Origin: Acutalibacteraceae bacterium
Lineage (GTDB): Bacteria; Bacillota; Clostridia; Oscillospirales; Acutalibacteraceae
Length of the DNA stretch: 64,000 nt
Assembly: GCA_045633485.1 (NCBI GenBank)
Contig: JAZQYL010000022.1
Span: 1,235 to 65,234 of the forward strand
Direction of reading: 5' to 3'
Positions 11,595 through 57,971 of the stretch are shown here, piece after piece. Position numbers and translations under genes: made by a program. The notes beneath the pieces are model-generated. The model was given only the letters and a program-made list of their open reading frames with translations, ran no database searches and was not told where the DNA came from. Position 1 is the first letter of the stretch, and the number at the start of each line of letters is the position of its first letter.

Positions 11595-12263
11595 TTATAC
11601 AAATATGCTAAGCTCGTGATTATCATCACAAATAGCAAGAATTATTTCCTTCGTGTCTTTATAACCTTGACATTTTAATTCCTTATTGAGCCAGTTTATA
11701 TCAAGTCCCATACGCTTTAAATTATCATGCAATATTCTTCCATCCATTATAAGTTCAGTGTTTATAGTTTCGGATGGAGGTACAATATTTAAATCATTAG
11801 GGTTTACAGGTCGTTTTGTTGCTTTTGGCAATATGGTTAATCGTCCGTTATATTCAAAAATAGCGGTAGCAATGTCATTTAAATTAAAATAACCTTCTTG
11901 CCTGCACATAACCATAAATTCGCTTAAATCCATCTTTGCCTTTTTCATATTTTTGCGATATATTTTACTGTTATTCATAATTATTGTTGGTGTACCGTTA
12001 ATATATTTGCGAAGTCTTGGTACCTTACTCGTAAAGAATGTAAGAATTACGGTTATTACACCATAGACCACCATTGCAATAAGAGGTTTCCATGGTTTTT
12101 CAAGCTCGGTTGCAAGTTCTGCAGCTACTGAGCCGATTGTAATGCCAGTTATATAATCAAAAAAATCAAGTTGTGACATTTGCTTATGCCCCATAACCTT
12201 TGCAATTAAAAACAATGTAACTGCTGATAAAACTGAGGTCAAAATTATCTTTAGAAACTCCAT
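11595..12263 (-). CDS. DUF421 (YetF-like) membrane protein
   Basis: N-terminal TM helices with QLDFFDYITGITIGS followed by a soluble domain. AGGTG RBS precedes the ATG at 12263, so the track start at 12290 is probably too long. Confidence 0.6.
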   Translation of the reverse strand: MEFLKIILTSVLSAVTLFLIAKVMGHKQMSQLDFFDYITGITIGSVAAELATELEKPWKPLIAMVVYGVITVILTFFTSKVPRLRKYINGTPTIIMNNSKIYRKNMKKAKMDLSEFMVMCRQEGYFNLNDIATAIFEYNGRLTILPKATKRPVNPNDLNIVPPSETINTELIMDGRILHDNLKRMGLDINWLNKELKCQGYKDTKEIILAICDDNHELSIFV

Positions 12264-32210: not shown

Positions 32211-33212
32211 TTATTCCTGATTCAACAAATGGCACGCTGCACAATGGCCATTACCAAAATCGCGATATTCCGGAGCTACCTCACTACATATATCCATAGC
32301 CTTTGGACAGCGAGTGTGGAAACGGCATCCTTTGGGTGGATTTGCCGGTGACGGAATATCACCCTTAAGTATTATTCTGTTCATCTTAACATCTGGATCA
32401 GGCTGTGGTATTGCCGAGAACAACGCCTGAGTATATGGGTGCAAAGGATTATCAAAAATATCATCCTTGGTACCAAATTCTACCATAGAACCCAAGTACA
32501 TTACGCCAATTTTATCTGAAATAAATTTTACAACAGAAAGATCGTGAGAAATAAATAAGTATGTAAGATTCATTTCTTTTTGTAACTTTTTAAGCAGATT
32601 AATAATTTGCGCTTGTATTGATACATCAAGTGCCGATACAGGTTCATCGCAAATAACCAATTTTGGATTTACTGACAATGCACGCGCTATACAAATACGT
32701 TGTCTTTGTCCACCAGAAAACTCATGCGGATATCTTTCATAATAATAATCACGAAGACCGCACTTATCCATCAAATCAAGCACATAATCCTTAACTTGTG
32801 ACTTAGGCACAATTTTATGAACCTCTACAGGCTCCGACAAAATACCGCCTACAGTACTACGCGGAGGCAAAGACGAATATGGGTCTTGGAAAATAATCTG
32901 CATACGCTTACGAATTTCACGCATTTCAGATGATTTTAGATTTGTAATGTCTTTACCCTCAAAAATAATTTGACCGCCATTTGATTCGTGGAGTTTAAGA
33001 ATGGTTCTTCCTAAGGTTGTTTTACCACAACCTGACTCGCCAACAATACCAAGAGTTTCACCCGGCATAAGTTTAAAGGAAACATCATCAACCGCAATAA
33101 GTTCCTGTGTTACCTTACCTGTAATTGTCTTTTTTATAGGAAAGCACTTACGAAGATTTCTAACCTCTAAAATAGCATTCGGGTCAAATTGCTGTGTAAT
33201 TTTTTCTTCCAT
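32211..33212 (-). CDS. oppF: Oligopeptide ABC transporter ATP-binding protein
   Basis: Walker A GESGCGKTT, FSGGQRQRICIARAL, C-terminal Cys-rich oligopeptide-ATPase extension. GAGGAG RBS before the ATG at 33212. Confidence 0.85.
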   Translation of the reverse strand: MEEKITQQFDPNAILEVRNLRKCFPIKKTITGKVTQELIAVDDVSFKLMPGETLGIVGESGCGKTTLGRTILKLHESNGGQIIFEGKDITNLKSSEMREIRKRMQIIFQDPYSSLPPRSTVGGILSEPVEVHKIVPKSQVKDYVLDLMDKCGLRDYYYERYPHEFSGGQRQRICIARALSVNPKLVICDEPVSALDVSIQAQIINLLKKLQKEMNLTYLFISHDLSVVKFISDKIGVMYLGSMVEFGTKDDIFDNPLHPYTQALFSAIPQPDPDVKMNRIILKGDIPSPANPPKGCRFHTRCPKAMDICSEVAPEYRDFGNGHCAACHLLNQE

Positions 33213-33213
33213 A

Positions 33214-34362
33214 CTATTTTTGCTCCTCATTGTACAAATGGCATGCTACAAAATGAGTAGGAGTTACCTGAATCATATTAGGATATTCTCCTGAACATTT
33301 TTCGGTGCAATTTGAACATCTTTCCTTAAAATAACAATGTGTAGGCATATTTATTGGATTGGGTACATTACCCGGAATGTTATAAAGTGTATCACTATCA
33401 GAATTTAAAGTCGGTTTTGACTTTTGAAGACCAATTGTGTATGGATGCATAGGGTTGTGGAATATCTCATCAACCGTTCCTTTTTCAATAACCTTGCCCG
33501 CGTACATAACCACCACATAATCTGCCATTTCAGCAATTATACCAAGGTCATGCGTAATAAGCATGATAGAACCGTCAATCTTATCCTTAAGATCACGTAA
33601 TAAATCAAGTATTTGTGCTTGAATAGTAACGTCAAGTGCAGTTGTAGGTTCATCCGCAATAATAAGACGAGGATCACTTGCTAGAGCCATTGATATCATA
33701 ACACGTTGACGCATACCACCAGACAATTCGTGTGGAAACGCATTGTAAACACGTTCCGGCATGGCGATACCAACAAGATTTAACATCTCAATTGATTTTG
33801 CCTTTGCATCATCTTTCGTGGCATCAGGATTATGTATGAATGTAACCTCATCTAGCTGCTGACCTATTGTAAAAACAGGGTTAAGAGATGTCATCGGCTC
33901 TTGGAAAATCATAGCAATTTGGTTGCCTCTAATTTTATGTATATCAGCAATCGGCATTTTAGCGATGTCGTAAACCTTTTCCTGTCCGTTTTTATCCTTA
34001 GATTTAAAACGAATTTCACCAGAATAAATTTGTCCTGTGGGACCCTGTAAAAGACGCATAACCGACATACTAGTAACCGATTTACCGCATCCCGACTCAC
34101 CCACAACACCTACCGTAGCATTCTGCGGCACATCAAAGGATACACCATTGACCGCTTTAACCACACCTTGCTCGGTAAAAAAGTAAGTATTAAGCTGATC
34201 AATTTCAAGAATATTTTCTCGATTTTTCATTTCTGTTAAATATTCAGACTCATCAGCTTTGCGATATTTGTACGCCTCAAGGCGCTTCATAATCTTTTTG
34301 TTTTCTCGAGCAATATCACGAATTTCTTTGCCCGATAGGTAGTTTTTTTCCGTTTTTGCCAT
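33214..34362 (-). CDS. oppD: Oligopeptide ABC transporter ATP-binding protein (with about 50-aa N-terminal extension)
   Basis: Walker A GESGCGKSV, LSGGMRQRVMISMAL, Walker B IADEPTTALD. Confidence 0.85.
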   Translation of the reverse strand: MAKTEKNYLSGKEIRDIARENKKIMKRLEAYKYRKADESEYLTEMKNRENILEIDQLNTYFFTEQGVVKAVNGVSFDVPQNATVGVVGESGCGKSVTSMSVMRLLQGPTGQIYSGEIRFKSKDKNGQEKVYDIAKMPIADIHKIRGNQIAMIFQEPMTSLNPVFTIGQQLDEVTFIHNPDATKDDAKAKSIEMLNLVGIAMPERVYNAFPHELSGGMRQRVMISMALASDPRLIIADEPTTALDVTIQAQILDLLRDLKDKIDGSIMLITHDLGIIAEMADYVVVMYAGKVIEKGTVDEIFHNPMHPYTIGLQKSKPTLNSDSDTLYNIPGNVPNPINMPTHCYFKERCSNCTEKCSGEYPNMIQVTPTHFVACHLYNEEQK

Positions 34363-34368
34363 ATTAAA

Positions 34369-35412
34369 CTACCTCCTTGCCTTTGGGTCTAACGCATCAC
34401 GTAAACCATCACCAATAAAGTTAAATCCAAGAACAGCAATAACAATGCATATACCTGCCGGCACCCAAACATTCAAATGGTTTTGAAGTATATCTTGATT
34501 GGTAGAAATAATGTTAATCATTGTTCCCCATGCAGCATATGGTGCTTTTACACCAAGATTTAGGTATGACAAGGTTGCTTCGTAAAGAATCATACTGCCA
34601 AGGCTTAAACTCATCTGAACTATAAGCTGTGGCATAACATTTGGAACCAAATGCTTAAATATTTTTCTTGATGTAGAATAACCCATAGCCTCGGCCGCAA
34701 CCATATATTCTTGTTCACGAAGTGAAAGAATCTGTCCACGCACAAGACGTGCCGTACCGGGCCAAGAAATGAATGTAAGATATATCATAAGTAAATAAAT
34801 ACGATATTTTGCATCAATACCCGACGCATCTAATATGGTACTTATAATAAGTAAAATCGGGACGCCCGGCAAGCAAATCAGTATATCACAAAGTCGCATT
34901 ATGATATTATCAACCGCGCCGCCAAAATAGCCCGCAATACCACCTAAAATTACACCTAAAATTGTGATTAAAAATACTGCAATAAAGCTAACTATAAGTG
35001 ATATCCTACCGCCATACATAAGGCGCACAAAAATATCATATCCTTCGTTATCGGTACCTAAAATATGATCTTTTGATGGCGACGCCAAAAAATTATCTTT
35101 AAGAGATTTTTCGGTTGTTTGATGAATTGTATATTCCTGACCGTCTACGCTATATGTAGTTTCAGATGTTGAATATTCAATTTTACCACTTTCGTCAAGC
35201 TCGATTTCGCCCCACTGTGTATAAACCAATGGACCCAAAAAACTAAACAAAAACAGACCCACAACCATTATCAAACCGACAATACTTAATTTTGATCTAA
35301 AAAATCTTCGAATTACCATTCTTGTCGGCGACATTAAACGCACATTTTTTTCGTGAGGCACTTCTTCAATAGCAGTTTCTTCAACTACTTCATTTTTAGT
35401 AATTTCTTCCAT
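34369..35412 (-). CDS. oppC: Oligopeptide ABC transporter permease
   Basis: BPD-transporter fold with an extended extracytoplasmic loop after TM1 and EAA loop EAMGYSTSRKIFKHLVPN. Confidence 0.85.
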   Translation of the reverse strand: MEEITKNEVVEETAIEEVPHEKNVRLMSPTRMVIRRFFRSKLSIVGLIMVVGLFLFSFLGPLVYTQWGEIELDESGKIEYSTSETTYSVDGQEYTIHQTTEKSLKDNFLASPSKDHILGTDNEGYDIFVRLMYGGRISLIVSFIAVFLITILGVILGGIAGYFGGAVDNIIMRLCDILICLPGVPILLIISTILDASGIDAKYRIYLLMIYLTFISWPGTARLVRGQILSLREQEYMVAAEAMGYSTSRKIFKHLVPNVMPQLIVQMSLSLGSMILYEATLSYLNLGVKAPYAAWGTMINIISTNQDILQNHLNVWVPAGICIVIAVLGFNFIGDGLRDALDPKARR

Positions 35413-35423
35413 AAAGCGCCTCC

Positions 35424-36416
35424 TTACTCTAATTTAACACGCGGGTCAACTATGCCGTACATTAGGTCTGCAAGCAATACGCCTATAACACTAAGAAGTG
35501 CCAAAAACATATTATATCCCATTATAAACGGTATATCACCACGATTCATAGCATCAAGAGCTATGTTACCGATACCAGGCAAATCAAATACTTGCTCTGT
35601 AATGATTGCACCTGAAAAAAGTGATGGTAAAAGTCCTGCAAGTGAAGTAACAAGTGGAATGAGTGTGTTACGGAACGCATGCTTATTAACAACCACTTTT
35701 TCACTAAGACCTTTTGCGCGAGCTGTACGTATATAATCGGAATTCATAACCTCAAGCATATTTGTACGTGTCATTCTCATGCGTGCGCCAATACTAAGTA
35801 TTACAATTGTAAGAATTGGTATGAACATATGTCTTACATAGTCAAGCAACAACTGCACTCCCGTATAAGAAGCAGTAGCGTTTACAAGACCTGACGCCGG
35901 AAACCAACCAAGTTTCAGCGCCAATAAATCTTTTAACATTTGTCCAAAGAAGAATGATGGCAATGATATACCAACCATTACAAGTACGGTTACTAGATAA
36001 TCCCTAAAACTATACTGATGAGTTGCCGCAGTAATACCTAATGGTATTGCAATTAAAAACTCAAAAATAGTCGCAACAAGAGCTATTGCAAACGAAATAC
36101 CCATATGCTCAAAAATTACGTCAGCAACGGGAATTCCGTACACGAAACTAGTTCCCAAATCAAAATGCGCTAATGCTCCAAGCCAACTAAAATAACCCTT
36201 TAAGATGCCCCAGAGACTGTTGTCCCCTAATCCGTACATTTCATACATTGCGTTAACCGTTTCTTCACTAACGGTGGCGCCACCCTGATTGATGGCGTTG
36301 ATTTTATCCTGGATAAAATCAACGGGCATCAATCGGATAAGAAAATAAATAATCATTGAAACGCCAAGCAATATAAATACGGACATTACTAATCTTTTTA
36401 ATATATATTTAAACAT
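35424..36416 (-). CDS. oppB: Oligopeptide ABC transporter permease
   Basis: MFKYILKRL N-terminus typical of OppB/DppB; EAA loop TARAKGLSEKVVVNKHAFRN. Confidence 0.85.
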   Translation of the reverse strand: MFKYILKRLVMSVFILLGVSMIIYFLIRLMPVDFIQDKINAINQGGATVSEETVNAMYEMYGLGDNSLWGILKGYFSWLGALAHFDLGTSFVYGIPVADVIFEHMGISFAIALVATIFEFLIAIPLGITAATHQYSFRDYLVTVLVMVGISLPSFFFGQMLKDLLALKLGWFPASGLVNATASYTGVQLLLDYVRHMFIPILTIVILSIGARMRMTRTNMLEVMNSDYIRTARAKGLSEKVVVNKHAFRNTLIPLVTSLAGLLPSLFSGAIITEQVFDLPGIGNIALDAMNRGDIPFIMGYNMFLALLSVIGVLLADLMYGIVDPRVKLE

Positions 36417-36432
36417 TAGTAGTTACTCCAAA

Positions 36433-39006
36433 TTATTTTGCAAATTCAACTTCCCAAATTCTGTCAAGTGGTGATGAATAAGGATTCATTTCTTTTTCAT
36501 CAGGCAAACTTTCGCTGCTTATAACCTTTGAATTATATGCGTAAAGAACGCTTCTTTGGTAAACAGGAAGTTCAATAGCAAGATCAAGAATTTGTTCCAT
36601 TGCATCCTTGTATAGATCCGAACGCTCTTCCTGATCGTTTGTTTCACGAGCTTCGTCAATAAGCTCACTAAGTTCATCAAGAATATCTAATTCTTCAGGA
36701 GTACCGCTTGTTTTAAGGTAATTATAGCCCCATGCAAGTGTACTTGTAGCTGTAGAATCCTTATGATATACCTGGTAAAGATCAGGGTCAAGAGCTGAAG
36801 ACCAAGCCGCAGCCCAAACTTCAAGTGAACCGGTGTTGATTTTTGTAAGTGCTTGTGTATCGCAAACAACTTCAACATCCCAACCCAAGTCGTTAAGCAA
36901 TGCTGCTGCATCACGGAATACTTTGTATGTAGGATGATCCTGCAAACTTGTACCTGCAATTGTAAACTTAACCTTAAGATCACTATCGCCTGCGCTTACA
37001 CCAGCTTCTTGCATATATTTTTCAACATTAGCAACAGCGATTTCTTTGCTCCAAGAGCCAATTGGTGGATAATCAAAACCGTTATCCTCCGCATCTGATC
37101 CCTTTGGATATGCCCAACTTACTTTAGACATTGGCCAGAAAATTTGCTCAGCGGTACCTGCACGATAATAGTCGAGTGCTAGTGATGTATTCATAGCACA
37201 CATAATAGCTTTTCTAAGATTTATATCATTAATCTTTGCAGAGTTTATACCAATATAACCGTAACCTAATTGATCGGTTGTAAGTGTAACCATACCTTTT
37301 TTTGAAAGGCCTTCAAGTTTTTCGTAATTGTCGGTTGTAAGTGATGGAGAAATGTAGTGTACATTACCCTCTTGTAATGCTGCAATAGCATTTTGCGAGC
37401 TAACTACTTGGTAACGAATTTTTTCAATCTTAGCGTTTTCAATACCACTACCTACAGTATTAAAGTGCTCATTTGATTTAAAGTATACAACATTATTAAT
37501 ATAAAATTCACTTTCGGAAGGATTGTCCTTGTTCTTATTGTTAGTAGCCTTATAAGAACCTGCGCCTACTGGAATTTTAATATTTCTTGTAGACTGTATA
37601 ATATCGGTCATAAAATCAAAACTTGCAAATTCAACGCCAAATTTATTGTCTTCGATATCAACATCAACGCTACTGCCCTCGCCATAATAATGTTGTGGAG
37701 CTATGGTAATTGCAAAGTTCCAAATTGCTTTTGGATCAATACCATCTATTGTTACAGAAAGAACGTCATATTCATCCGGATTTTTAACTGTACCATCATC
37801 GTTATGTGCAGATGCAATGGTATATTCAGTGCCGTTAATTTCGATTTTTTCACCGGCTTGATCGGTATGACCAAGTGAAACAATACCTGAAATGTTTTCT
37901 ACAGCTAAAGTTCCGTCATCGGAAACATTTTCGTGAAGTATTACTTCTTTTGCCTTTGCTGAAAATTCAGTATTTAATGTGTTTGCTGTACCCCAGTACA
38001 ACAAAATAACATCAAGATTTCCTGCAATTTGATCATTATAAACATAATCGATTGCATCTTCTTTTGACTTGATTGAGTTAGGATATGATGGTGTTAATTT
38101 CTTAATCTTGGTGCGGTCAATTTTTCCGTCCTCACCCTCTTCATATTCAACCTCTACATAACCTTCGTTATACATAAAGCAGAATATTTCATCATCAAAT
38201 TCTTCATATGACTTGTATGGCTCATCAACATATGATTCTTGAGCGCCTAGGTAATCATCTTCAAGTTCTTCTTTAAAGAGTTTGAGTGCATATTCGTAAT
38301 CTTCTAAAAGATTTTTGTTAGTAACCTCTTCCGGTTTGTTTGATATAGCCGACTGATAACCGCTGCTAACTGTGTAAGCATTGATTGCTTTTTTCATTGC
38401 ATCGTAACCTACTTCATTAGTAGAAGAATTGTCTCTTTCGGAGATATATAGGTTAATTAGCTCATTTATACGAGCCTCTGCTCTTGAAATAGCCTGTGAT
38501 GAAATCAAGTCATCGCTGTCATCCGAAGCTGAACCAACGGTCTGTGTGCGATATTCCGAAAGGCCTAAAATATCGGTAGAATACAATGTATTTGAGCCGG
38601 TATACACAGGGTCAAGATATACATAATAGTTAAAGAGTACATCTTCCATGGTAAGTGGTTGACCATCAGAAAACTTGATGCCGTTTTTAAGTACAAAATT
38701 ATATGTAACGGTATCATCGTCATTTTCTACGATATCGTAGTCTTTGGTAACAACAGCCTCATCTTCACCGTATGCAACCTGAACTTCACCGTCAACATAC
38801 TTAGAGCCAAGCATACCAATTTGTGTCATAGCAACAATTGTACCATCGGCAGCTGCTGTGTAAAAGAATGGATTAAACAATCCGTCTAACTGCTCTGTCA
38901 TAATAACAAGAGCATCTGCTCCACCTGCACCGCAACCGGTAAGTGAAGATAGCATGCCGGCACAAATTGCCACGCACAACAAGAGAGAAATAATTCTTTT
39001 TTTCAT
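36433..39006 (-). CDS. Family-5 (OppA-like) peptide-binding lipoprotein, unusually large (857 aa)
   Basis: Lipobox LTGC; NGIKFSDGQPLTMEDVLFNY is a typical SBP_bac_5 motif. It lies directly upstream of oppBCDF. Confidence 0.8.
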   Translation of the reverse strand: MKKRIISLLLCVAICAGMLSSLTGCGAGGADALVIMTEQLDGLFNPFFYTAAADGTIVAMTQIGMLGSKYVDGEVQVAYGEDEAVVTKDYDIVENDDDTVTYNFVLKNGIKFSDGQPLTMEDVLFNYYVYLDPVYTGSNTLYSTDILGLSEYRTQTVGSASDDSDDLISSQAISRAEARINELINLYISERDNSSTNEVGYDAMKKAINAYTVSSGYQSAISNKPEEVTNKNLLEDYEYALKLFKEELEDDYLGAQESYVDEPYKSYEEFDDEIFCFMYNEGYVEVEYEEGEDGKIDRTKIKKLTPSYPNSIKSKEDAIDYVYNDQIAGNLDVILLYWGTANTLNTEFSAKAKEVILHENVSDDGTLAVENISGIVSLGHTDQAGEKIEINGTEYTIASAHNDDGTVKNPDEYDVLSVTIDGIDPKAIWNFAITIAPQHYYGEGSSVDVDIEDNKFGVEFASFDFMTDIIQSTRNIKIPVGAGSYKATNNKNKDNPSESEFYINNVVYFKSNEHFNTVGSGIENAKIEKIRYQVVSSQNAIAALQEGNVHYISPSLTTDNYEKLEGLSKKGMVTLTTDQLGYGYIGINSAKINDINLRKAIMCAMNTSLALDYYRAGTAEQIFWPMSKVSWAYPKGSDAEDNGFDYPPIGSWSKEIAVANVEKYMQEAGVSAGDSDLKVKFTIAGTSLQDHPTYKVFRDAAALLNDLGWDVEVVCDTQALTKINTGSLEVWAAAWSSALDPDLYQVYHKDSTATSTLAWGYNYLKTSGTPEELDILDELSELIDEARETNDQEERSDLYKDAMEQILDLAIELPVYQRSVLYAYNSKVISSESLPDEKEMNPYSSPLDRIWEVEFAK

Positions 39007-39036: not shown

Positions 39037-40338
39037 TTACTTTTTAAAATCTAATGTTACTGTATTTTCACTTACAGTAATATTAACTTTTTCAGGTTTA
39101 TCTCCGGTAGCAGTGCAGTCAATTTGTGCGGTTGAAAGTTTTGTAAAATCACCCATACCGCAAACAAGACCTATCGAATAATCATCAGTAGCAAAGTAAC
39201 TGCCCGAATCAATCATTAAATGACTGTTTAAAATACATACATTGTTAAATTCTGACTTGTCAGAAATCGTTCCTGCAAGCAAACCGTAATTAGTACCGGC
39301 CTTGCGAGCACCCGATTTAATAATGAATGTTATATTATCAAAATTAACATCTAAAATTTGAGCCTCATCAGAAACATATCCAAAAAGTCCGGCATTAACC
39401 TTAGAGTTATTCGTTTGTGTTATTTGCACGTTTTTAATCGTATAACCATTACCCTTAATTACACCGCTAAAATTACCGTAAACAAAACTTGTTGGCCATA
39501 TTTTATCGGTAAAATCAAGATCTGCAAACAACTCGTAATTACCCGTTAAACTTGCGCTTTCAATAAACTGATCCGTATTATAAATACGATACCATTCACC
39601 CTTTGTCCAATCAACATAGAGTTTTAAAACCGAATCTGTTGCCGTAGCATTTTCAACATTTACAGTACCGGGATGTGTAAGTATCTCCCCTGTAAGTTCA
39701 TTGGTGGCTTCTAAATCAAAATAAGCTTTATTAAATGTATAACCCTCTCTTTTCGGGAAATCGTACATATCTACGGCACCTGTTTCTTCATTCCAAGCAG
39801 GTATTTTAAGCTGCTTTTCACCGGATGGATCATATTGCATTTTATCAATTAATTCACCAGTTTGCAGCGAATAAAATTCAATCTCAAACATTGGTACCCA
39901 CGCAGCATAAAGAGTAAGCACAGGTTTATCAGCTGAATATTCTTTCTCTTTATCAATATTTAAAACATCATTTTCAAAATCCCATTTATTCGAATATTCG
40001 TAAAATGTTTCGCCTGAATCATTGGTTTTTTCAATTCTCTCTTTATACCACCCCGCAAGAAAATAACCGTTTTTGGTGGCGGTAAAAGCATCGTTATCAC
40101 GCCTTGAATCATCTGGCGCTATGAGCGAAATATACTCTTTATCAGCTTTAAAGGAATCAACAATCACCGAAGTATTTGTTGTAAAGGTACCTCCGTTAGC
40201 GTCAAATTTGACGCTAACGGTGTAACCGTCTTTGTTGTTAGTATCATATGGAGTAGCATTTTCTGCGCAACCTGAAAGCACAGTCACAAAAGCTATTATA
40301 AGTAGCAAAAATGTAAATACTTTAATTTTCTGTTTCAT
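39037..40338 (-). CDS. Lipoprotein with Listeria-Bacteroides-type repeats and a GLUG/beta-helix-like C-terminal region
   Basis: Lipobox LSGC; VKFDANGGTF...GYFLAGWY repeat signature; C-terminal NAGLFGYV...NYGLLAGTI. The start overlaps the protease gene end by 17 nt. Confidence 0.5.
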   Translation of the reverse strand: MKQKIKVFTFLLLIIAFVTVLSGCAENATPYDTNNKDGYTVSVKFDANGGTFTTNTSVIVDSFKADKEYISLIAPDDSRRDNDAFTATKNGYFLAGWYKERIEKTNDSGETFYEYSNKWDFENDVLNIDKEKEYSADKPVLTLYAAWVPMFEIEFYSLQTGELIDKMQYDPSGEKQLKIPAWNEETGAVDMYDFPKREGYTFNKAYFDLEATNELTGEILTHPGTVNVENATATDSVLKLYVDWTKGEWYRIYNTDQFIESASLTGNYELFADLDFTDKIWPTSFVYGNFSGVIKGNGYTIKNVQITQTNNSKVNAGLFGYVSDEAQILDVNFDNITFIIKSGARKAGTNYGLLAGTISDKSEFNNVCILNSHLMIDSGSYFATDDYSIGLVCGMGDFTKLSTAQIDCTATGDKPEKVNITVSENTVTLDFKK

Positions 40339-43300
40339 TTTCCAGTACTTCCTCCTTATGATGCTTTTTTTGTTTAATATTTTTTACAAAAGCAGAAATT
40401 TTTGAAAACAAGAATTTTACAAATGATATTACCTTTGTAAAAATCAATTTTGCTATTTTAACAACTTGTTGCACAATTATTTTTGTCCATTTAATTAAGA
40501 AAGGTTTAATAACGTTAAATATCTTAACAAAAAACACCTTACATGCCACAAAAATTTTAACAACAAGTTTTGCTACAAAGGCAATAGAAATCTTAATTAC
40601 TGATATAACTTTAGCAAAAATCGGTTTTAAAATTTTTGCTGTGCTTTTAAATATAGGTTTACAAAAAGCTGCCATTTTATCGGTTACCGGCTTACAAAAA
40701 ACAACTATCTTATTCAAAATAGGTTTAATAAATTTTGAAATTTTTTGAATTAAAGGACTAACTAACGCTGAGATTTTATCGCATACAGGTTTTGTAAACT
40801 TAACGATATGTTGCTTAAACTTTTTAATAAGCAAAATTGCTGCTAAAACAACTGTTGCAAATATCGCAATTATCAAAACTAAAATACCGATATTAAATCC
40901 TTCTTTATTATCGTTTGTCTCTTCATTCTTTTGCGCATCAGGATCAAGCGCTTTTATACGTTGCTCGGCCGAAACAAGATCTGAATAGTTCTTTACAAGT
41001 GACTGTTGCTCAAGTGTTGCTATTTTTGAGTAAGCAGCACGTGCGCTTTCTACAAGACCCTTGTCGTCATAGCTAACTCTTTCTGGAATTGCCTTAATAG
41101 CGTTTATGGCATCAACCGCTACATCATCCGGCGCAGCAGGACCATCAATTACTAAATCAAAATACTGATTACAAATAAACGAATCGTATCCTACGCCGTT
41201 AATCGGACGTACCATTGTAAGCTTATTTTCAACCTTACCTACGTAGTCAACAAATGTTGCTCCGTAAAATACGTTAGAATACATCTCACCGGTTGCATTC
41301 CACATAAAGAACGGAATTATGCCCAAACCGTTTATCTGAACCTCGTTACCATCATAGTCGGTATAAGTTCCAAAATCACCCGTACCCGGGATATTCTCAA
41401 AACTACCGTAGTATGAAGGATCAAATTCTTCTTCAAAGTTTGGTACGGTATGACTACCAAAAGTAACCATATCAAGCATATTACAATCATAGAAAGCCTT
41501 GTGTCCGATTGCGGTAGTACTAAATGGCATTTTTACTCTGACAACATCGCTACCTGCAAAAGCATAAGCGGTAATACGTACGGTATCATCAGCAATAACA
41601 ACATCGTTGTTGTTTGTACCTGAATATGTTATAAGTTCCATTCCCTTTTCATTCATACAATAAAGTGAACCTTCAATAACAAATACGGTATCGCTTATTT
41701 CATAATTGTAAACCGTTACCTCTTTTTCTTTTCCATTTACTTTTTGCTTTTGTGTAGTGCTAAAAGGTTCGAGTTTACACATAGCAAACGGGTTGTCCGC
41801 AATCTTTTCAATATCTTTACCCAAAACAACTTTAAATGGTGTCAGGGTTTCTTTGATAAAAACATTTCTACCAATATTAACAGCAGCGGTAAGATCAGCT
41901 GATGTAATTGCTGTATATGCAAATGCATAATCACCAATGTTTTCCACACAGTTAAGATTATCAACTATGTCAAGCGGATCGCAATAAGAGAACGCGCCCT
42001 CACCTATCTGTTCGGTTTTTTCGCAAAACTTTACAGTTTTAAGCAAACGGTTAGATACAAATGCATACTTATCAATGTTTTCGGTTGCGGATACATCAAG
42101 AGTTTCTAATCCGCACTCCATAAATGCGTACTCGCCGATTGTTTCAACCTTGGAAAGATTTATACTCTTTAACGCATCACAACCTGCAAATGTATAGGGT
42201 TTAATTTCTTTTATATCATCACTTAATTCAACTTGAACAAGTTGACGACAATATGAGAACGCATATTCACCAAGAGTTTCTGCAGACGAAATATCGGCAT
42301 TTGTTATTTGCGGTCCGTGATATGTGTAATGATAATAACCATTTGAATTAACCGCTGCAACGGTCATATTTTCATCAAGACAAGCATAATACACATCGCC
42401 CGAAATCGCATAATCACCAATTTCTTTAACCTTTGATAAATCAATATTCTTAAGGCTTGATGTATTATAGAATGCCATTTTTTCAAGTTTTGCGCCCTCA
42501 CCTAAAGTAACGGTCTCAAGACTTGCGGCATTTGAAAACGCGTTTTCGCCGATTTGAGCATTTTTACCTATAGTAAGTGAGATTAATGGTGATGAAAATA
42601 CATATCTGAACAGTTTTTGTTCACCGTTCATATACATTTCTACCTTGAATGCTCTATCTTTGTCCATACTAAAGGCGTATTTTCCAATTTTAACATCATC
42701 GCCTATAACAACGGTTGTCAAATCTACGCATTCACTAAATGTTCCCTCTGCAATTTCCATCTTATCAGGAATTGTAACCGATGTTAATTTAGTAAACGAG
42801 AATGCATATTTGCCTATTTTTACCTTTTTATCAAGGTTCGGCATTGTAGTAATTGATGTTTCAAAAAATGCATAATCACCAATTTCTTTAAGTTCACCAA
42901 GAGATACCGAAATCAATCCCTCATTAGACGCAAGACCGTACTCACCAATTGCAGTTACCTTTTCCATCAAAACCGATGTAATTTTTTGGTTGTGTGAAAA
43001 AGCACCTTTAGCAATTTCATTAACCTTTTTACCACCTATATTATCATAGGTAAATTCGCCCTCAATAAGAGGTGATACGGCAATAAGTTTTTTACCGTCA
43101 GAAGAAAGTATATATGCCTTATCGTGAGCCTTAAAGTTTTTATTTCCTTTTTCAATTTCAAATTCTGAAATTTTTGTATCTCTGAATGCGAATACCCCGA
43201 TATCGTTAACATCAGGACCTATGGTAAGTTTTTTCATATCATCGCATTCGTAGAACATACCTTCAGGAAGAACTGAAGAATTTACATAAAACTCTTTAAG

Positions 43301-46300
43301 TGTTTCGCAGCTGGTAAATGCATAAGGACCGTATTTTACCTTTTTAGCATCAATTTTTACATCTTTTAGCTTTTTGCAGCCTGCAAATGCATATTGGCCA
43401 ACAGAATAAAGATTTTCACCAAGTTCAATACCTTTTAATTTTTGATTACCTGCAAATGCATAATCAGAAATTACACAAACAGATGGTAGTTTTAACGTAT
43501 CGCGTAAATCGCAATTTTCAAATGCGTTTTGGTTAATTATCTTTAGATTATTTTCGCCGCTGAAAGTAATTTTTTGAAGAGCAGTACAACCATAAAACGC
43601 ACCATAATCTATTGATTCAAGGGTTGATGGGAATACAACCTCTTCCAACGCAGTCAAATTAGCGAAGGCATAACTTGCAATGCTTTCTACACCCTCAGGT
43701 ATTACAACCTTTGTGATGGTATTATCACCAATAAACCAAGCCTTTGATGTTTCGGCATCGTCAAAAGCAAGTTCTTCCTCCGTTTTCATAATATATTCGA
43801 AATTAGAGAAGGCAAACTGACCGATCTGAGTTAAGGATAGATCCTCCGGTATATTAACAAGACCGCCGTTACCATAATAGTGTGTAAGACTTGCGCCTGT
43901 TGTCACATATGGATCCTTAACTTCAACATTAACAGTTTCAGAATAATATGTGCTCTTATCATCAAGCAATACCTTAACTGTGATAGAGGCAAAGCCTTCT
44001 GCTTGAGCTGTAACCAAACCTGAATTGTCAACCTTTACAATATTTTCATTACTGCTTTCAAACGATACAGATGTATCATTCTTAAAGAATGAATCTAACG
44101 AGAAGTTGAGCGCTACCTCTTCCGAAGGATACATTTCCAATTTGTAATTTCCTTCAAAGAAGTTTGTACTACCGGTATCACCTAATTTTTTATCTTCATT
44201 TTCAAGAATATAGTACGCCTTGTTGGTATAAAAACCATCTAATGTAAATACATCGGCAACCGGTTTATCATATCGGCGATATCCATCATCACCTTTTTCA
44301 AGAACAGTAACATTAAAGGTTATACTTTTATTGTTTAGCGGATCCTGTGCCTTGATAATCGCATTACCACTCTTAACCGCTACAAGTTTATTGTTAACAA
44401 CACGAACTACACTCGGTTTAGAAGAAGAATATTCTAATAACTCCGCCCACTCTGTATCGGGAACAATAACAGGTTCGAGTGTATATACCTCGTTTGGACT
44501 AAGAGTAATTCCGTCCTCAACACCTTCAAAGTAAAAGTCGGTAAAATCATCAGGAAGTGACAATTCATATGTTGCGTAATTCAGAGCATAGTCATATGCA
44601 TTAATTACGAACGTATTCTTAGTAGTAGCATTATTTTTAATATCGTAAATATAATCGGTAAGTTCATATGTAACCTTAGTTGTATCATTGCGTTCAGAAT
44701 AAACAGGTGTCATATACTGCTCTAATGTTTTCATAGCAGGACCAACATTACCGTCCGCATCAGCTTCTTCGGTAACATAACCAATTTGTGAACACATAGC
44801 ATAATGATTGTCATAAATCATTACATCAGCATATAATCTGTTTTTCTTTAAGGTTTTATCATATTCATATCTGTATTCCACATCGGTGATTGTGGGGGCT
44901 TCAAAGTCGGCAACAAGTGGGAATTCAAAAACATTGTTTTTATTTGTTTGAAGTCCGCCATCGCCGTAATCAACATAACCTACAAGTCTTACTGTATATT
45001 CACTATTATTTTCAAGATTATATTCGGTAGTGTCAAATTCTATTTTTACATTCGAAGGATAAATTGACGCACCACCGTCACTATAAGACTTGCGGATATC
45101 ATTTTCTACCTTTTCGAATACTACATCACCAGTAATGTCATCGGTTATTGTTATTTCAATTTTTGCAGCATTTCGTAATAGACCTGCCCAAACAAATCTT
45201 AGAGAATGTATTGTACCCACTTGGTTTGACAACGCAACATAATTTTCATTTGCAGAGATAACCATGTCATCAGGATCCTGCAAGAAATAATATGAACCAA
45301 GGTAGCTTACATAGTCATCACTAACGCCGCCTACAGGACGAGTAGCATATGCGTCGGCTTTTGTTTTATCTTCTTCATCAATACCATCATCAAGTTCATC
45401 AGCATTTGTATCATAGTATGTAAGGTCAAAAAGCGGAGCTTGTGTCCAATCACCATAAAATGCAAGATAAGGAACATTAAGATCAACCTTTGTACCGGAT
45501 TTTGCCTCTAAAGTAACAAATCCTTCAACATACATACCATTTTCAAACGACTTGTCCAAATACTCTTTATCTTCTTTACCAAGAGTAATCTTCACAGTAA
45601 CTTCTGTTTGACCGTTTTTCTTAACTCGTACGGTATTTTTATTCGATTTTTTGCCATTAATAGCCACAACCTTAACCTTTGCGCCGTCTAACAAACGCGC
45701 CTCTTCGGTAATGGTTGTTTCGCCTGCGGCAGTTTTGGTATCACTAACACCCTCGGTCATTACATACGCATCAATATCGTATGATACCGCATGTTTTGCG
45801 GTATTGTTTATGGTAAACGTCATGGTGTATTCGCCTGATTTTCTTGGATCATCACCAAGTTCAAGTTTGGCTTTATCTGTTATTTCACCATCTTCGTCTT
45901 TAACGGTTATATACGCTGGTGATTTAATAGAATTTGTAAGGTTTGCAAGACCTGCGCCCTGTTTTCTTACCGAGTACGGAAGACCATTTTTCGCAAGCGC
46001 AATATCTGCTGTAGACATAATCAAACAATTAACCATTGTGTTGACAGCTTGATTATCATCGGCAATTTCGGGATAATTTTCCACAACGTATTGACGAAGC
46101 AACACAACAACACCTGCATAGTTAGGACATGCCATTGATGTACCTGACAAACGGTCATAACTACCGCCGGTAATTGAAGAAAGTATGCTACCACCGTGAG
46201 CCGTAATTTCAGGTTTAATTTTAAGGTCTGGTGTAGGCCCCCACGATGAAAAGTCAGAAATAAATGGACCCGAAGTTTGCTTGCGGCTTATCTTTAAGGT

Positions 46301-47959
46301 ACCTTTGCCCTTAGCAGCAAGCAATTCACCATCGTCTTGTGAAATAGAACATACCGCAAGTGTCGCATCTCCAACATTCATTTTAATATCGCCGGATACA
46401 TTGTTATAAATTATAATACCTGCAGCGCCTTGCTGTTGCGCAATCATTGCCTTTTCTTCAAATGTGTTTGAACCACGGCGAACAAGCGCAATCTTACCCT
46501 CTACATTCATGCCTGTATAGTCGGCACTACGGCCAACGCCGGGTATTAACACATAATCAATCTTTATGGATTTTTTATCACCGAGTAAGGAATCGTAAAA
46601 ATTGTTTTCTTCTGCGGAACCATTTGTCGATTCAACAAAGTAAATAATTTTATTATCAAATTCAATATATGGTGTTTCTGCGCCGGCAATAGAAGCTACC
46701 GACATAACGCCGTCATAGGTTGAAGGCGAGCCAACAGTACCGGTATCGGGATTAGAGGTAAGACCTAAATTACCGTTCTTTTCTGAGCCATATGCTGAGC
46801 TATAACTGTTAGAAGCCGCTACAACCATACAGATACCAGAATCGCGAAGCTTATCATATATTCCGTCAACCGCTTCTTCATCGCTTTCACGGCTGAAACC
46901 ACAAGCAGTACCGATTGACATATTAATAACATCAACGCCCAAAACAATGCAGTCCTCAAGAGCAGCTAAAATCCAAGCGGTACGTGCGGTATCCATAACA
47001 TCGGAAAATATCTTCATGGATACAAGTTGAGCGTTAGGAGCAACGCCTCGTATTGTATCATCGTTACCAACAATTACACCCGATACATGAGTACCGTGAT
47101 TGTTATGTGTTGAATATGCATCAGAATCAACATCTGCATAGTCAAAGTTATATGGGATTTTTTCGTTTATATAAACATCATCAACCGTAAGTCCGTCTAA
47201 TTGCTCGCTTGCCACAGTATCCTTAATAACTGCAGCAACATCATCATATGTAAGACCCAATTTTTTGCTTGTAAAATTATCTGTCGAAAACGCAGTATGA
47301 TTTGAATCTATACCTGTATCAAGCACAGCAACAACCATACCTGAACCATCGTAACCCGAATCAGAGCTATCAAAAATGCCGGTATCAAAAACGTCAACGG
47401 CGTTTTCAACAAGTTCTGTTTCACAAGTATTGTATTCCTCGCCAACAATTATGTTCATATCGTCGCTTATGGAATCACAAATTTTCTCAAAGTCAGAAGC
47501 TTTAATAAGAAGCTCAAAACCATTTATTATAGTAGAATATTCTTCGCCTGTTTTATAAGAAATGTTTTTCTCATCAAGTATAGCAAGCACCGACTCCTTA
47601 CCATTGGCAAGAGACTGCTTTGCCACTTTAGCGTAATCACCATTTGAAGCAAAGTCTGATAAGCTCATTGTTTTATCAGTACCCTCATAAACATCAATAA
47701 CAGCCTTATCACCTGTTGTTATTATTACGGAAATTTCGTCATTGTCATTAATTGTTTCAGGCAATTGATAAACTTTCGTATCATCAAAATACTTTGAATA
47801 ATCTAGCGCTATATTATCTATTTTTTTAATATCGGAATTATAAGATTTATCCGATAATGCATAGATGCTCGACATTGGTAGTGATGCTGCCGCTATCACA
47901 ACAGACAATACTGCGGCTGACATACCTTTTAATAATTTTTGTAATTTTAAGCACTTCAT
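40322..47959 (-). CDS. Giant (2545 aa) membrane-anchored S8 subtilisin-like cell-envelope protease with PA domain, Ig-like domains, about 800 aa of BspA-type leucine-rich repeats, a TM helix and a Lys-rich periodic tail
   Basis: Signal peptide. Catalytic triad contexts VAVLDTGID (about 47320), HGTHVSG (about 47090) and SGTSMACP (about 46135). PA-like insert KIALVRRGSNTFEEKA...GAAGIIIYNN. Big_2-like segments at about 43930-44520. LRRs at 41460-43860. TM at about 40832-40900. Confidence 0.85.
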   Translation of the reverse strand: MKCLKLQKLLKGMSAAVLSVVIAAASLPMSSIYALSDKSYNSDIKKIDNIALDYSKYFDDTKVYQLPETINDNDEISVIITTGDKAVIDVYEGTDKTMSLSDFASNGDYAKVAKQSLANGKESVLAILDEKNISYKTGEEYSTIINGFELLIKASDFEKICDSISDDMNIIVGEEYNTCETELVENAVDVFDTGIFDSSDSGYDGSGMVVAVLDTGIDSNHTAFSTDNFTSKKLGLTYDDVAAVIKDTVASEQLDGLTVDDVYINEKIPYNFDYADVDSDAYSTHNNHGTHVSGVIVGNDDTIRGVAPNAQLVSMKIFSDVMDTARTAWILAALEDCIVLGVDVINMSIGTACGFSRESDEEAVDGIYDKLRDSGICMVVAASNSYSSAYGSEKNGNLGLTSNPDTGTVGSPSTYDGVMSVASIAGAETPYIEFDNKIIYFVESTNGSAEENNFYDSLLGDKKSIKIDYVLIPGVGRSADYTGMNVEGKIALVRRGSNTFEEKAMIAQQQGAAGIIIYNNVSGDIKMNVGDATLAVCSISQDDGELLAAKGKGTLKISRKQTSGPFISDFSSWGPTPDLKIKPEITAHGGSILSSITGGSYDRLSGTSMACPNYAGVVVLLRQYVVENYPEIADDNQAVNTMVNCLIMSTADIALAKNGLPYSVRKQGAGLANLTNSIKSPAYITVKDEDGEITDKAKLELGDDPRKSGEYTMTFTINNTAKHAVSYDIDAYVMTEGVSDTKTAAGETTITEEARLLDGAKVKVVAINGKKSNKNTVRVKKNGQTEVTVKITLGKEDKEYLDKSFENGMYVEGFVTLEAKSGTKVDLNVPYLAFYGDWTQAPLFDLTYYDTNADELDDGIDEEDKTKADAYATRPVGGVSDDYVSYLGSYYFLQDPDDMVISANENYVALSNQVGTIHSLRFVWAGLLRNAAKIEITITDDITGDVVFEKVENDIRKSYSDGGASIYPSNVKIEFDTTEYNLENNSEYTVRLVGYVDYGDGGLQTNKNNVFEFPLVADFEAPTITDVEYRYEYDKTLKKNRLYADVMIYDNHYAMCSQIGYVTEEADADGNVGPAMKTLEQYMTPVYSERNDTTKVTYELTDYIYDIKNNATTKNTFVINAYDYALNYATYELSLPDDFTDFYFEGVEDGITLSPNEVYTLEPVIVPDTEWAELLEYSSSKPSVVRVVNNKLVAVKSGNAIIKAQDPLNNKSITFNVTVLEKGDDGYRRYDKPVADVFTLDGFYTNKAYYILENEDKKLGDTGSTNFFEGNYKLEMYPSEEVALNFSLDSFFKNDTSVSFESSNENIVKVDNSGLVTAQAEGFASITVKVLLDDKSTYYSETVNVEVKDPYVTTGASLTHYYGNGGLVNIPEDLSLTQIGQFAFSNFEYIMKTEEELAFDDAETSKAWFIGDNTITKVVIPEGVESIASYAFANLTALEEVVFPSTLESIDYGAFYGCTALQKITFSGENNLKIINQNAFENCDLRDTLKLPSVCVISDYAFAGNQKLKGIELGENLYSVGQYAFAGCKKLKDVKIDAKKVKYGPYAFTSCETLKEFYVNSSVLPEGMFYECDDMKKLTIGPDVNDIGVFAFRDTKISEFEIEKGNKNFKAHDKAYILSSDGKKLIAVSPLIEGEFTYDNIGGKKVNEIAKGAFSHNQKITSVLMEKVTAIGEYGLASNEGLISVSLGELKEIGDYAFFETSITTMPNLDKKVKIGKYAFSFTKLTSVTIPDKMEIAEGTFSECVDLTTVVIGDDVKIGKYAFSMDKDRAFKVEMYMNGEQKLFRYVFSSPLISLTIGKNAQIGENAFSNAASLETVTLGEGAKLEKMAFYNTSSLKNIDLSKVKEIGDYAISGDVYYACLDENMTVAAVNSNGYYHYTYHGPQITNADISSAETLGEYAFSYCRQLVQVELSDDIKEIKPYTFAGCDALKSINLSKVETIGEYAFMECGLETLDVSATENIDKYAFVSNRLLKTVKFCEKTEQIGEGAFSYCDPLDIVDNLNCVENIGDYAFAYTAITSADLTAAVNIGRNVFIKETLTPFKVVLGKDIEKIADNPFAMCKLEPFSTTQKQKVNGKEKEVTVYNYEISDTVFVIEGSLYCMNEKGMELITYSGTNNNDVVIADDTVRITAYAFAGSDVVRVKMPFSTTAIGHKAFYDCNMLDMVTFGSHTVPNFEEEFDPSYYGSFENIPGTGDFGTYTDYDGNEVQINGLGIIPFFMWNATGEMYSNVFYGATFVDYVGKVENKLTMVRPINGVGYDSFICNQYFDLVIDGPAAPDDVAVDAINAIKAIPERVSYDDKGLVESARAAYSKIATLEQQSLVKNYSDLVSAEQRIKALDPDAQKNEETNDNKEGFNIGILVLIIAIFATVVLAAILLIKKFKQHIVKFTKPVCDKISALVSPLIQKISKFIKPILNKIVVFCKPVTDKMAAFCKPIFKSTAKILKPIFAKVISVIKISIAFVAKLVVKIFVACKVFFVKIFNVIKPFLIKWTKIIVQQVVKIAKLIFTKVISFVKFLFSKISAFVKNIKQKKHHKEEVLENETEN
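40325..40825 (-). repeat. 167-aa cytoplasmic tail built from about 11-residue Lys/Ile/Phe/Val periodic units
   Basis: KPILNKIVVFC / KPVTDKMAAFC / KPIFKSTAKIL / KPIFAKVISVI / KIFVACKVFFV / KFLFSKISAFV and similar. 35 Lys in 167 residues by my count, with almost no acidic residues until the last 10. Confidence 0.75.
41460..43860 (-). repeat. Protein-level BspA-type leucine-rich repeat array within the protease
   Basis: Dozens of about 23-aa units of the form ...I.IP..V..IG.YAF..C..L..V... (for example IGQFAFSNF, IASYAFANLTALEEV, IDYGAFYGCTALQKI, IGEYAFMECGLETL). Confidence 0.7.
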
Positions 47960-57908: not shown

Positions 57909-57971
57909 AACTCCTCCTAAATAAAAGACAATTTTTTTGTGGTAGATACAATCCATCCAATTATTCAACTT

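Follow-up and report, generated by a model that had tools for sequence, protein, structure and literature searches.

The window analysed here is a stretch of 64,000 nucleotides (nt) of contig JAZQYL010000022.1 from an Acutalibacteraceae bacterium (GCA_045633485.1), and all coordinates count from the start of this stretch. It carries the gene of a membrane-anchored cell-envelope protein of 2545 amino acids (aa) that combines an S8 protease with leucine-rich repeats (LRRs; 40322..47959 (-), from the open reading frame (ORF) listing and Pfam). The subject of this work is the lysine-rich tail that follows the single transmembrane (TM) helix of this protease and that probably forms an amphipathic helix lying in the plane of the inner membrane leaflet.

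The protease begins with a Sec-type signal peptide (aa ~1-35, 47855..47959 (-), approximate boundary), which was read by eye, without a predictor, from MKCLKLQKLLKGMSAAVLSVVIAAASLPMSSIYALS: a basic n-region and a hydrophobic core are followed by a cleavage region with small residues. The subtilase (S8) catalytic domain with its inserted PA domain (aa 205-670, 45950..47347 (-)) was identified with Pfam (PF00082, E 9.4e-43; PF02225, E 1.1e-14). Its catalytic triad is intact, the D, H and S motifs being VLDTGI at aa 212, HGTHV at aa 288 and GTSMA at aa 606. Apart from Peptidase_S8 and the PA insert, the Pfam content comprises fn3_5 (PF06280, Fn3-like), Big_2 and 8 LRR_5 stretches; the latter, together with LRR_8, mark a BspA-type LRR region (aa ~1414-2015, 41915..43720 (-), LRR_5 E 3.8e-118), for which NCBIfam returned a sub-cut-off HupY/LrrG adhesin-like match. 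The closest NCBIfam model for the protease is the SGO_0316/0317 LPXTG serine peptidase family (E 6.9e-84), with a score of 282 that lies far under the cut-off of 1400.

The stop-transfer anchor is the TM helix GFNIGILVLIIAIFATVVLAAILLI (aa 2354-2378, 40826..40900 (-)), a run of 25 uncharged hydrophobic residues. A search with the whole protein returned 120 full-length orthologue clusters (67-85% identity), and the position of the TM helix is kept in all 120. The tail proper covers aa 2379-2545 (40325..40825 (-)). Its extent of 167 aa behind a single TM helix and its content of 35 Lys, as reported in a preliminary description of this DNA, were confirmed by direct read-out, which gave 35 K, 0 R, 2 D and 5 E; the acidic residues had been said to be essentially confined to the end, and every E indeed stands inside the terminal EEVLENETEN. 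Two parts were distinguished: a cationic amphipathic core with 11/3 periodicity (aa 2379-2532, 40364..40825 (-), 14 × 11-residue units, net charge +32), delimited from periodicity, phase, hydrophobic moment, an AlphaFold2 (AF2) model and orthologues, and a short acidic C-terminus of 13 codons, HHKEEVLENETEN (40325..40363 (-)), which is followed by the protease stop codon (40322-40324). The tail is 58% hydrophobic and 13% aromatic, with a net charge of +0.21 per residue. Pro recurs every 11 residues in its first half (7 Pro in 151 aa), and the consensus of 356 KP-anchored units reads K0 P1 [VI]2 [FTI]3 [DE]4 K5 [IVL]6 [AVS]7 [KA]8 [FV]9 [LCIV]10. The six 11-mers quoted in the preliminary description are all present in this register.

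Known types of anchor were searched for at the C-terminus. No LPXTG motif is present near it (the sole loose match is IPGTG at aa 2190), no SLH domain appeared in the Pfam scan of the protease, and the last 292 aa gave no match to the NCBIfam C-terminal sorting-domain models. Simple stop-transfer tails occur in distant orthologues. These results agree with the earlier statement that the anchor of the window protein is neither of the LPXTG or SLH type nor a simple stop-transfer segment. When the tail was run against Pfam at E up to 1, no family was found, the sole match (AAR2, E 0.23) being spurious; no other ORF of ≥60 aa overlaps the tail region in any frame. Further TM segments within the tail were considered and rejected for the window protein, in which no more than 10 consecutive residues are free of K, R, D, E and H; uncharged stretches of 15-16 residues are present in the tails of a few orthologues.

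The periodicity of the 154-aa core was measured on the Kyte-Doolittle scale. Spectral power amounts to 25.7 at the period 11/3 = 3.667 and to 0.8 at 3.60, with ~1 expected and ~1 seen at other periods, and 0 of 5000 composition-preserving shuffles match the observed 11/3 power, both for hydrophobicity and for a Lys indicator. The direction of the hydrophobic moment stays within ~90-140 degrees in each 22-residue window, the phase being constant across ~150 residues. The 11-residue period of 3-11 helices that had been noticed by eye is thus real and phase-coherent. Over the whole core the mean hydrophobic moment is 0.467 at 98.2 degrees per residue versus 0.087 at 100 degrees per residue; the collapse at the latter angle means that the amphipathicity is coherent only for a helix with 11 residues per 3 turns. 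Heliquest-type values in 18-aa windows are a mean hydrophobicity of 0.70, a mean moment of 0.48 and a mean charge of +3.3, with D >1.34 in 76%. No other segment with comparable 11/3 periodicity was found in the 64-kb window. At the DNA level, Tandem Repeats Finder (TRF) detected no period-33 tandem repeat in the tail-coding region, so the 11-residue units have diverged in their nucleotide sequence. The sole DNA tandem repeat that TRF reported there is the A/T-rich TTTTACAAAACAAAAA (40382-40423, 16 nt, 2.6 copies), which probably reflects Lys/Phe codon bias and not a functional element.

A Lys-rich 11/3 core follows the TM helix in 62 of the 120 orthologue clusters, with lengths of 62-179 aa, best periods of 3.62-3.70 (median 3.67) and net charges of +11 to +39 (median +25.5; +0.13 to +0.26 per residue). 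For a helical wheel, every residue of the 62 cores was placed on an 11/3 wheel relative to the local moment. Ile, Val, Leu and Met make up 82% of residues at 0 degrees, the centre of the hydrophobic face, and Phe, Trp and Tyr are concentrated at +/-65 degrees. Lys accounts for 60% at -98 degrees and for 67% at +131 degrees, Asp and Glu for 17-30% at +/-164 degrees, and Pro for 37% at -131 degrees. With basic residues at the polar/non-polar interface and acidic residues opposite the hydrophobic face, this is the class-A pattern of lipid-associating helices; the analysis of wheel and moment at 3.67 residues per turn that had been proposed beforehand therefore supports the suggested helix type, both in the 62 orthologues and, through the moment at 98.2 degrees, in the window protein itself. 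AF2, supplied with a 26-sequence alignment of tails, modelled one uninterrupted helix over tail residues 2-162, with the chain not folded back on itself (predicted local distance difference test (pLDDT) 68 overall, ~80 for the first 50 residues and ~60 later), which indicates helix propensity in the tail.

The tail is cytoplasmic. In the window protein the signal peptide is N-terminal, the sole hydrophobic span precedes the tail, and the 35 Lys of the tail satisfy the positive-inside rule. The topology follows from natural fusions between the protease and the lipoprotein encoded by the next gene (P0026, P0028, P0031, P0048, L011:1854-3810 and L013:6838-8785; 2913-3042 aa). In these ORFs the order is TM1, periodic tail, acidic linker, TM2 and a domain homologous to the mature downstream lipoprotein, and TM2 aligns with the lipoprotein signal peptide without the lipobox Cys. 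The fused forms hence put the tail between two TM helices with both flanking domains extracytoplasmic. In the fused species, TM2 stands in place of the lipoprotein signal peptide. The fusions fall in at least two places on a neighbour-joining (NJ) tree, which was calculated from the 900 residues before the TM helix and was not bootstrapped.

On this NJ tree the proteins with a tail fall into one contiguous group, in which a few members without a tail are nested, and all outgroup lineages are tail-less, which suggests that the tail had one origin followed by some losses. The remaining, more distant orthologues carry non-periodic ends, either stop-transfer tails of 7-20 aa or short acidic tails, and the number of repeat units ranges from 0 to ~16 across closely related orthologues. 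The possibility raised at the outset that orthologues might lack the tail entirely therefore applies to the more distant half of the family and not to the 62 clusters with a core. A search with the tail alone in a word-indexed database of 5.8 billion proteins gave a null result. This was rejected as a sign of absence, because the word index did not propose the orthologue tails; phmmer, given the same query, matches them with E-values as low as 7e-42. In the GTDB species genomes that were scanned, 18 loci were found, all of them in metagenome-assembled genomes that are assigned to Acutalibacteraceae, Oscillospiraceae or 'Ruminococcus sp.' and come from the hindgut of goat, sheep or deer.

Among the related loci, identity to the window protein is 37-52% for the tail and 72-86% for the adjacent ectodomain, and the OppA-like protein encoded downstream is 83-91% identical in most loci and 72% in the most distant one (L018); the tail is the fastest-evolving part of the locus. 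Pairwise ratios of non-synonymous to synonymous substitution rates (dN/dS) are ~0.24 for the tail and 0.045 for the ectodomain, with dS saturated for most pairs; the least saturated pair (L003/L006) gives 0.22 and 0.03, respectively. The tail is under purifying selection, which acts on the pattern and not on residue identities. The indels in the tail alignment comprise six separate blocks of exactly 11 columns, in addition to 4- and 7-column blocks. A frameshift or assembly artefact, feared at the outset near 40830, was rejected: the reading frame runs through without interruption in 62 cluster representatives and in 15 genome loci, it recurs in more than 60 assemblies made independently, and dN/dS is below 1. 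By this record the module would have arisen inside one Acutalibacteraceae/Oscillospiraceae clade from a short stop-transfer tail, and would have grown by gain and loss of 11-codon units with the consensus K-P-[VI]-x-[DE]-K-[IVL]-x-x-[FV]-x.

The acidic end of the tail has to be considered together with the next gene, which encodes a lipoprotein of 433 aa (39037..40338 (-), lipobox LSGC) and overlaps the protease gene by 17 nt. Its Shine-Dalgarno sequence AAGGAGG (40351-40357 (-)) forms the K-E-E codons of the protease, its ATG (40336-40338 (-)) lies inside the AAT-GAA codons, and the protease end ENETEN-stop reads MKQKIK, the N-terminus of the lipoprotein, in the +1 frame. In an automated search of 14 unfused related loci, a start codon was found inside the last protease codons in 11 and a GAGGAGG-type Shine-Dalgarno sequence before 10. 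The terminal sequences of L014 and L016 also overlap by eye, so that only L018, with a tail of 16 aa, is without an overlapping start. The '...(D/N)ETEN' end is kept even in many orthologues without the periodic tail, because it coincides with the site where translation of the next gene starts. The acidic EEVLENETEN end is thus better explained by the overlapping ribosome-binding site and start codon than by a design of the tail, and the lipoprotein is translationally coupled to the protease.

The lipoprotein family is well conserved and is annotated as 'hypothetical'. Its AF2 model is mostly beta (pLDDT 75); Foldseek found no match to this model in the PDB at E <1e-3, and Pfam and NCBIfam returned sub-threshold Listeria-Bacteroides repeat matches only. 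The lipoprotein gene is followed on the same strand by a complete oligopeptide (Opp) ATP-binding cassette (ABC) importer (32211..39006 (-)), which completes the operon. The importer consists of an OppA-like substrate-binding protein, itself a lipoprotein and unusually long at 857 aa (36433-39006 (-), Pfam SBP_bac_5), two permeases (35424-36416 (-) and 34369-35412 (-), BPD_transp_1 and OppC_N) and two ATPases (33214-34362 (-) and 32211-33230 (-), ABC_tran and oligo_HPY). The order protease-lipoprotein-OppA is kept in 17 of the 18 related loci, including L018 with its 16-aa tail; the contig of the 18th ends early.

Elsewhere in the window, the ORF 55062-57956 (-) encodes a 964-aa membrane protein with a redoxin/thioredoxin-like ectodomain. 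The protein probably begins with MEKLKAFFNKIGKLFKKAWEVVKAKK, an amphipathic helix of 25 residues that is rich in Lys and stands immediately in front of its TM helix; the moment is 0.53 over the 25 residues and up to 0.71 in the best 18-residue window, and the net charge is +7 to +8. It is a short N-terminal analogue of the tail, and apart from the tail itself the window has no further cationic amphipathic helix next to a TM segment that is comparably strong; a weaker helix of this kind follows a TM segment in the ORF 11595..12263. Type I dockerin domains end three secreted proteins (13-1884 (+), 50096-51676 (-) and 61735-63933 (-)), and a cohesin and Big_3 repeats are also present in the last of them. 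These domains show that the organism has a cellulosome-like assembly system.

From the features of the tail described above, it is probably a TM-tethered, cytoplasmic, cationic amphipathic 3-11 helix lying flat on the inner leaflet; its lipid binding, its orientation and a role in anchoring or positioning are what we infer. According to this model, the ~2350-aa protease/LRR ectodomain would be exported until the single TM helix stopped transfer, and the last ~150 residues would fold on the anionic inner leaflet as one long, proline-kinked helix of ~22 nm (~150 residues at a rise of 1.5 Å). A sector of ~200 degrees with Ile, Val, Phe and Leu would be buried among the acyl chains, the Lys at both polar/non-polar boundaries would snorkel to the lipid phosphates, and the few Asp and Glu would face the cytosol. 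The outcome would be a large in-plane footprint and, from the +32 charges, a patch of ~30 bound anionic lipids. Such a footprint could stabilise the protease and position it laterally beside its operon partners, the lipoprotein and the Opp peptide importer. Candidate roles are accordingly extra anchorage of the 2350-aa ectodomain, lateral positioning by the lipoprotein or Opp, and compensation of curvature. In alpha-synuclein, apolipoproteins and perilipins, 3-11 helices form on a lipid surface and place their Lys at the interface (PMC3135411, PMC5889406), and a bulkier hydrophobic face abolishes curvature and charge selectivity and leads to constitutive binding (PMC3135411). By analogy, the tail should be constitutively adsorbed to the membrane, because it is largely hydrophobic, rich in aromatic residues and already held there by the TM helix.

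Several observations weigh against this model. The confidence of the AF2 prediction is moderate, in particular in the second half of the tail, and AF2 ignores membranes. The hydrophobic pattern is ambiguous, since any 11/3 amphipathic helix also fits the a-d-e-h pattern of a hendecad coiled coil, and in profile searches the tail comes closest to phage tape-measure repeats, and these assemble into bundles of helices. Orthologues with tails of 7-20 aa evidently work without the module, which is thus not essential for anchoring. A mean hydrophobicity of 0.70 is unusually high for a reversible surface helix, and deeper or oligomeric insertion of the tail is conceivable. Finally, the NJ tree on which the family history rests was not bootstrapped.

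The main rival is a hendecad coiled coil, in which the a-d-e-h stripes of several tails would pack into a straight, tape-measure-like bundle that projects ~22 nm into the cytoplasm and clusters the protease as trimers or higher oligomers. Hendecad coiled coils use exactly an 11/3 stripe, and this alternative draws support from a search with a profile of 26 tails against 1.84 billion representatives. The search gave 5035 matches at E up to 1e-3, the best of which are 11-mer repeat regions; all 7 of the 7 top matches that were sampled are phage tail tape-measure proteins according to PHROGs. In the PDB, the strongest match is to 6v8i, the tape-measure protein of phage 80alpha (E 3.9e-7), and the tails reciprocally match PHROG tape-measure families, weakly (15-27 bits, E 2e-6 to 1e-3), HMMER E-values being inflated for periodic, compositionally biased sequences such as the tail. 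Tape-measure proteins carry variable numbers of 11-aa repeats with W/F markers (PMC3271669), and W and F are frequent in the tails. In the top match, P0121 (1792 aa, tape-measure-like), ~20 tandem 11-mers of the form LKP[IVL]GD[AW]I occupy residues ~470-700 and share K-P-[IV]-x-D-x-I with the tail unit KP[VI]xDKI; either convergence of proline-started hendecads or a distant common origin would account for this likeness.

The same search also reveals how far the resemblance goes. Among the best 150 of the 5035 matches, the fragment P0168 is the sole true orthologue, and no homologue of the tail outside the orthologue group was recognised. In the other matches the 11-periodic region lies within a long protein; the median net charge of these regions is +0.01 per residue, and all but P0251 are without an adjacent TM helix (TM-adjacent analogues in other protein families may exist beyond these 150). 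A bundle of tails would differ from these near-neutral regions in its electrostatics: every core carries an uncompensated charge of +11 to +39, with Lys flanking both sides of the stripe, which implies repulsion in a parallel homo-oligomer. The a-d-e-h hydrophobic pattern follows by construction from the 11/3 stripe of the tail, and its flanks are all Lys. In addition, Pro recurs every 11 residues in the first half, the AF2 single-chain model is not folded back on itself, and ~20 bits over 140 residues represent shared periodicity without demonstrable homology. Because the charge of the Lys flanks is uncompensated and Pro recurs, we disfavour the hendecad oligomer and regard it as a minority possibility. 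Membership of the tail in the tape-measure proteins was rejected on the basis of the net charge, the position at the C-terminus of an S8/LRR protein in a protease-lipoprotein-Opp operon and the weak scores. We read the likeness as shared hendecad periodicity, an analogy and not a sign of membership. As in the tail, tape-measure repeats are 11-residue units with aromatic markers that evolve by gain and loss of units (PMC3271669). They differ from it in being internal to phage proteins of 800-4600 aa, charge-neutral and not beside a TM helix, in lying in phage tail gene clusters, and in acting as helical bundles in the lumen of the phage tail.

A more far-reaching version of the in-plane helix was also considered. 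The tail might be a new bacterial membrane-organising module, a giant TM-tethered cationic 3-11 helix that originated de novo when a juxtamembrane unit of 11 codons was amplified. Around each copy, ~30 anionic inner-leaflet lipids would be sequestered, and many copies would either build a lipid/protein microdomain that brings together the protease, its fused or coupled lipoprotein and the Opp importer or offset the outward curvature stress from crowded 2350-aa ectodomains. This we consider unlikely, and less likely still is the variant in which the unit was captured from a prophage tape-measure gene.

It may also be asked whether the tail has a specific function at all, or whether it is a runaway 33-nt expansion of a positive-inside juxtamembrane segment, tolerated as harmless and kept open mainly by the embedded ribosome-binding site and start codon of the downstream gene. 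The module is missing from about half of the orthologues, with architecture and operon otherwise unchanged; the tail evolves fastest in the locus and varies in length (62-179 aa); an A/T-rich genome (~35% GC) favours Lys, Ile and Phe codons, and the C-terminal codons are constrained by the overlapping start region. Neutral expansion is difficult to reconcile, however, with a dN/dS of ~0.24, clearly below 1, or with the retention of period, phase and class-A placement across 62 clusters despite an identity of 37-52%. Indels keep the 11-residue register, and a 500-nt open frame in DNA of 35% GC is kept in all lineages of the clade, save for a few apparent losses. A tail without specific function thus appears quite improbable. 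Very unlikely, finally, is a cytoplasmic tail whose Lys-rich helix binds nucleic acid, polyphosphate or protein (such as the Opp ATPases) in place of lipid: the very high net charge (+32), the co-transcription and translational coupling with the lipoprotein/Opp operon and the covalent fusion of the tail to the next protein in some orthologues would suit it, but conservation of the pattern alone at low sequence conservation speaks against a specific protein interface, a continuous stripe with 58% hydrophobic residues would be insoluble away from a hydrophobic surface, and the direct TM tether holds the tail at the membrane.

Long amphipathic helices built from 11-mers are textbook binders of lipid surfaces in eukaryotes (apolipoproteins, synuclein, perilipins). 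To our knowledge, no bacterial surface enzyme is known to carry such a helix permanently, as a cytoplasmic tail tethered to its TM helix, and the literature searched contained no account of a comparable tail on a bacterial surface protein or protease. The orthologue series, with 0 to ~16 units on an otherwise identical protein and operon, is a ready-made natural experiment that could show how a single-pass anchor benefits from an in-plane helix, be it in retention, lateral organisation, curvature or lipid sorting, although the host organisms are uncultured ruminant-gut Clostridia. The family also shows a repeat module arising and growing in register by 11-codon steps, and the tail, being compact, is a candidate tag with which proteins could be fixed to anionic bacterial membranes.

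Three known systems can be set beside the protease and its tail. As regards the ectodomain, PrtP/lactocepin, C5a peptidase and SGO_0316/0317 have the same combination of S8 domain, PA insert and Fn3-like domain, and in the lactococcal proteolytic system the protease is likewise linked to an oligopeptide ABC importer (Opp). The window protease differs from PrtP-type enzymes in at least ~600 aa of BspA-type LRRs and in its partner: it is co-translated with a lipoprotein without a PDB fold match, whereas PrtP-type enzymes are accompanied by a maturase of the PrtM/PrsA type. The anchors differ as well, the cell-envelope proteinase of L. lactis being linked by sortase to peptidoglycan via LPXTG (PMC7783315), in place of which the window protease, without LPXTG, has a TM helix and a periodic tail of 150 aa.

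As regards the tail, alpha-synuclein, ApoA-I and the perilipins share with it the tandem 11-residue units, a hydrophobic stripe that is straight only at 11/3, and the class-A arrangement with Lys at the interface and acidic residues in the middle of the polar face. ApoA-I is similarly punctuated by proline, with 7 Pro in 186 aa (PMC5889406, Table 1) versus 7 Pro in 151 aa of the tail, and alpha-synuclein likewise has a cationic repeat region followed by an acidic tail. Helices of the alpha-synuclein, apolipoprotein and perilipin type fold on a lipid surface and lie in its plane (PMC3135411, PMC5889406), and by analogy the same would be expected of the tail. The Pfam families Apolipoprotein, Synuclein and Perilipin gave no match to the tail at E up to 1, so that sequence homology is not indicated. 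The eukaryotic helices are soluble and exchangeable, whereas the tail is bacterial and permanently tethered to a TM helix; it is also much more hydrophobic (58%; mean 0.70), 13% aromatic and almost purely cationic. From its hydrophobicity and charge, constitutive binding is therefore predicted, not binding selective for curvature or lipid.

In architecture, the closest analogue known to us is the Env protein gp41 of lentiviruses, a single-pass surface protein whose cytoplasmic tail of ~150 residues consists of long cationic amphipathic LLP (lentivirus lytic peptide) helices that surround the TM helix on the inner leaflet. Unlike the tail of the window protease, to which it is evolutionarily unrelated, that of gp41 is viral, rich in Arg and not in Lys, and without 11-periodic tandem repeats.

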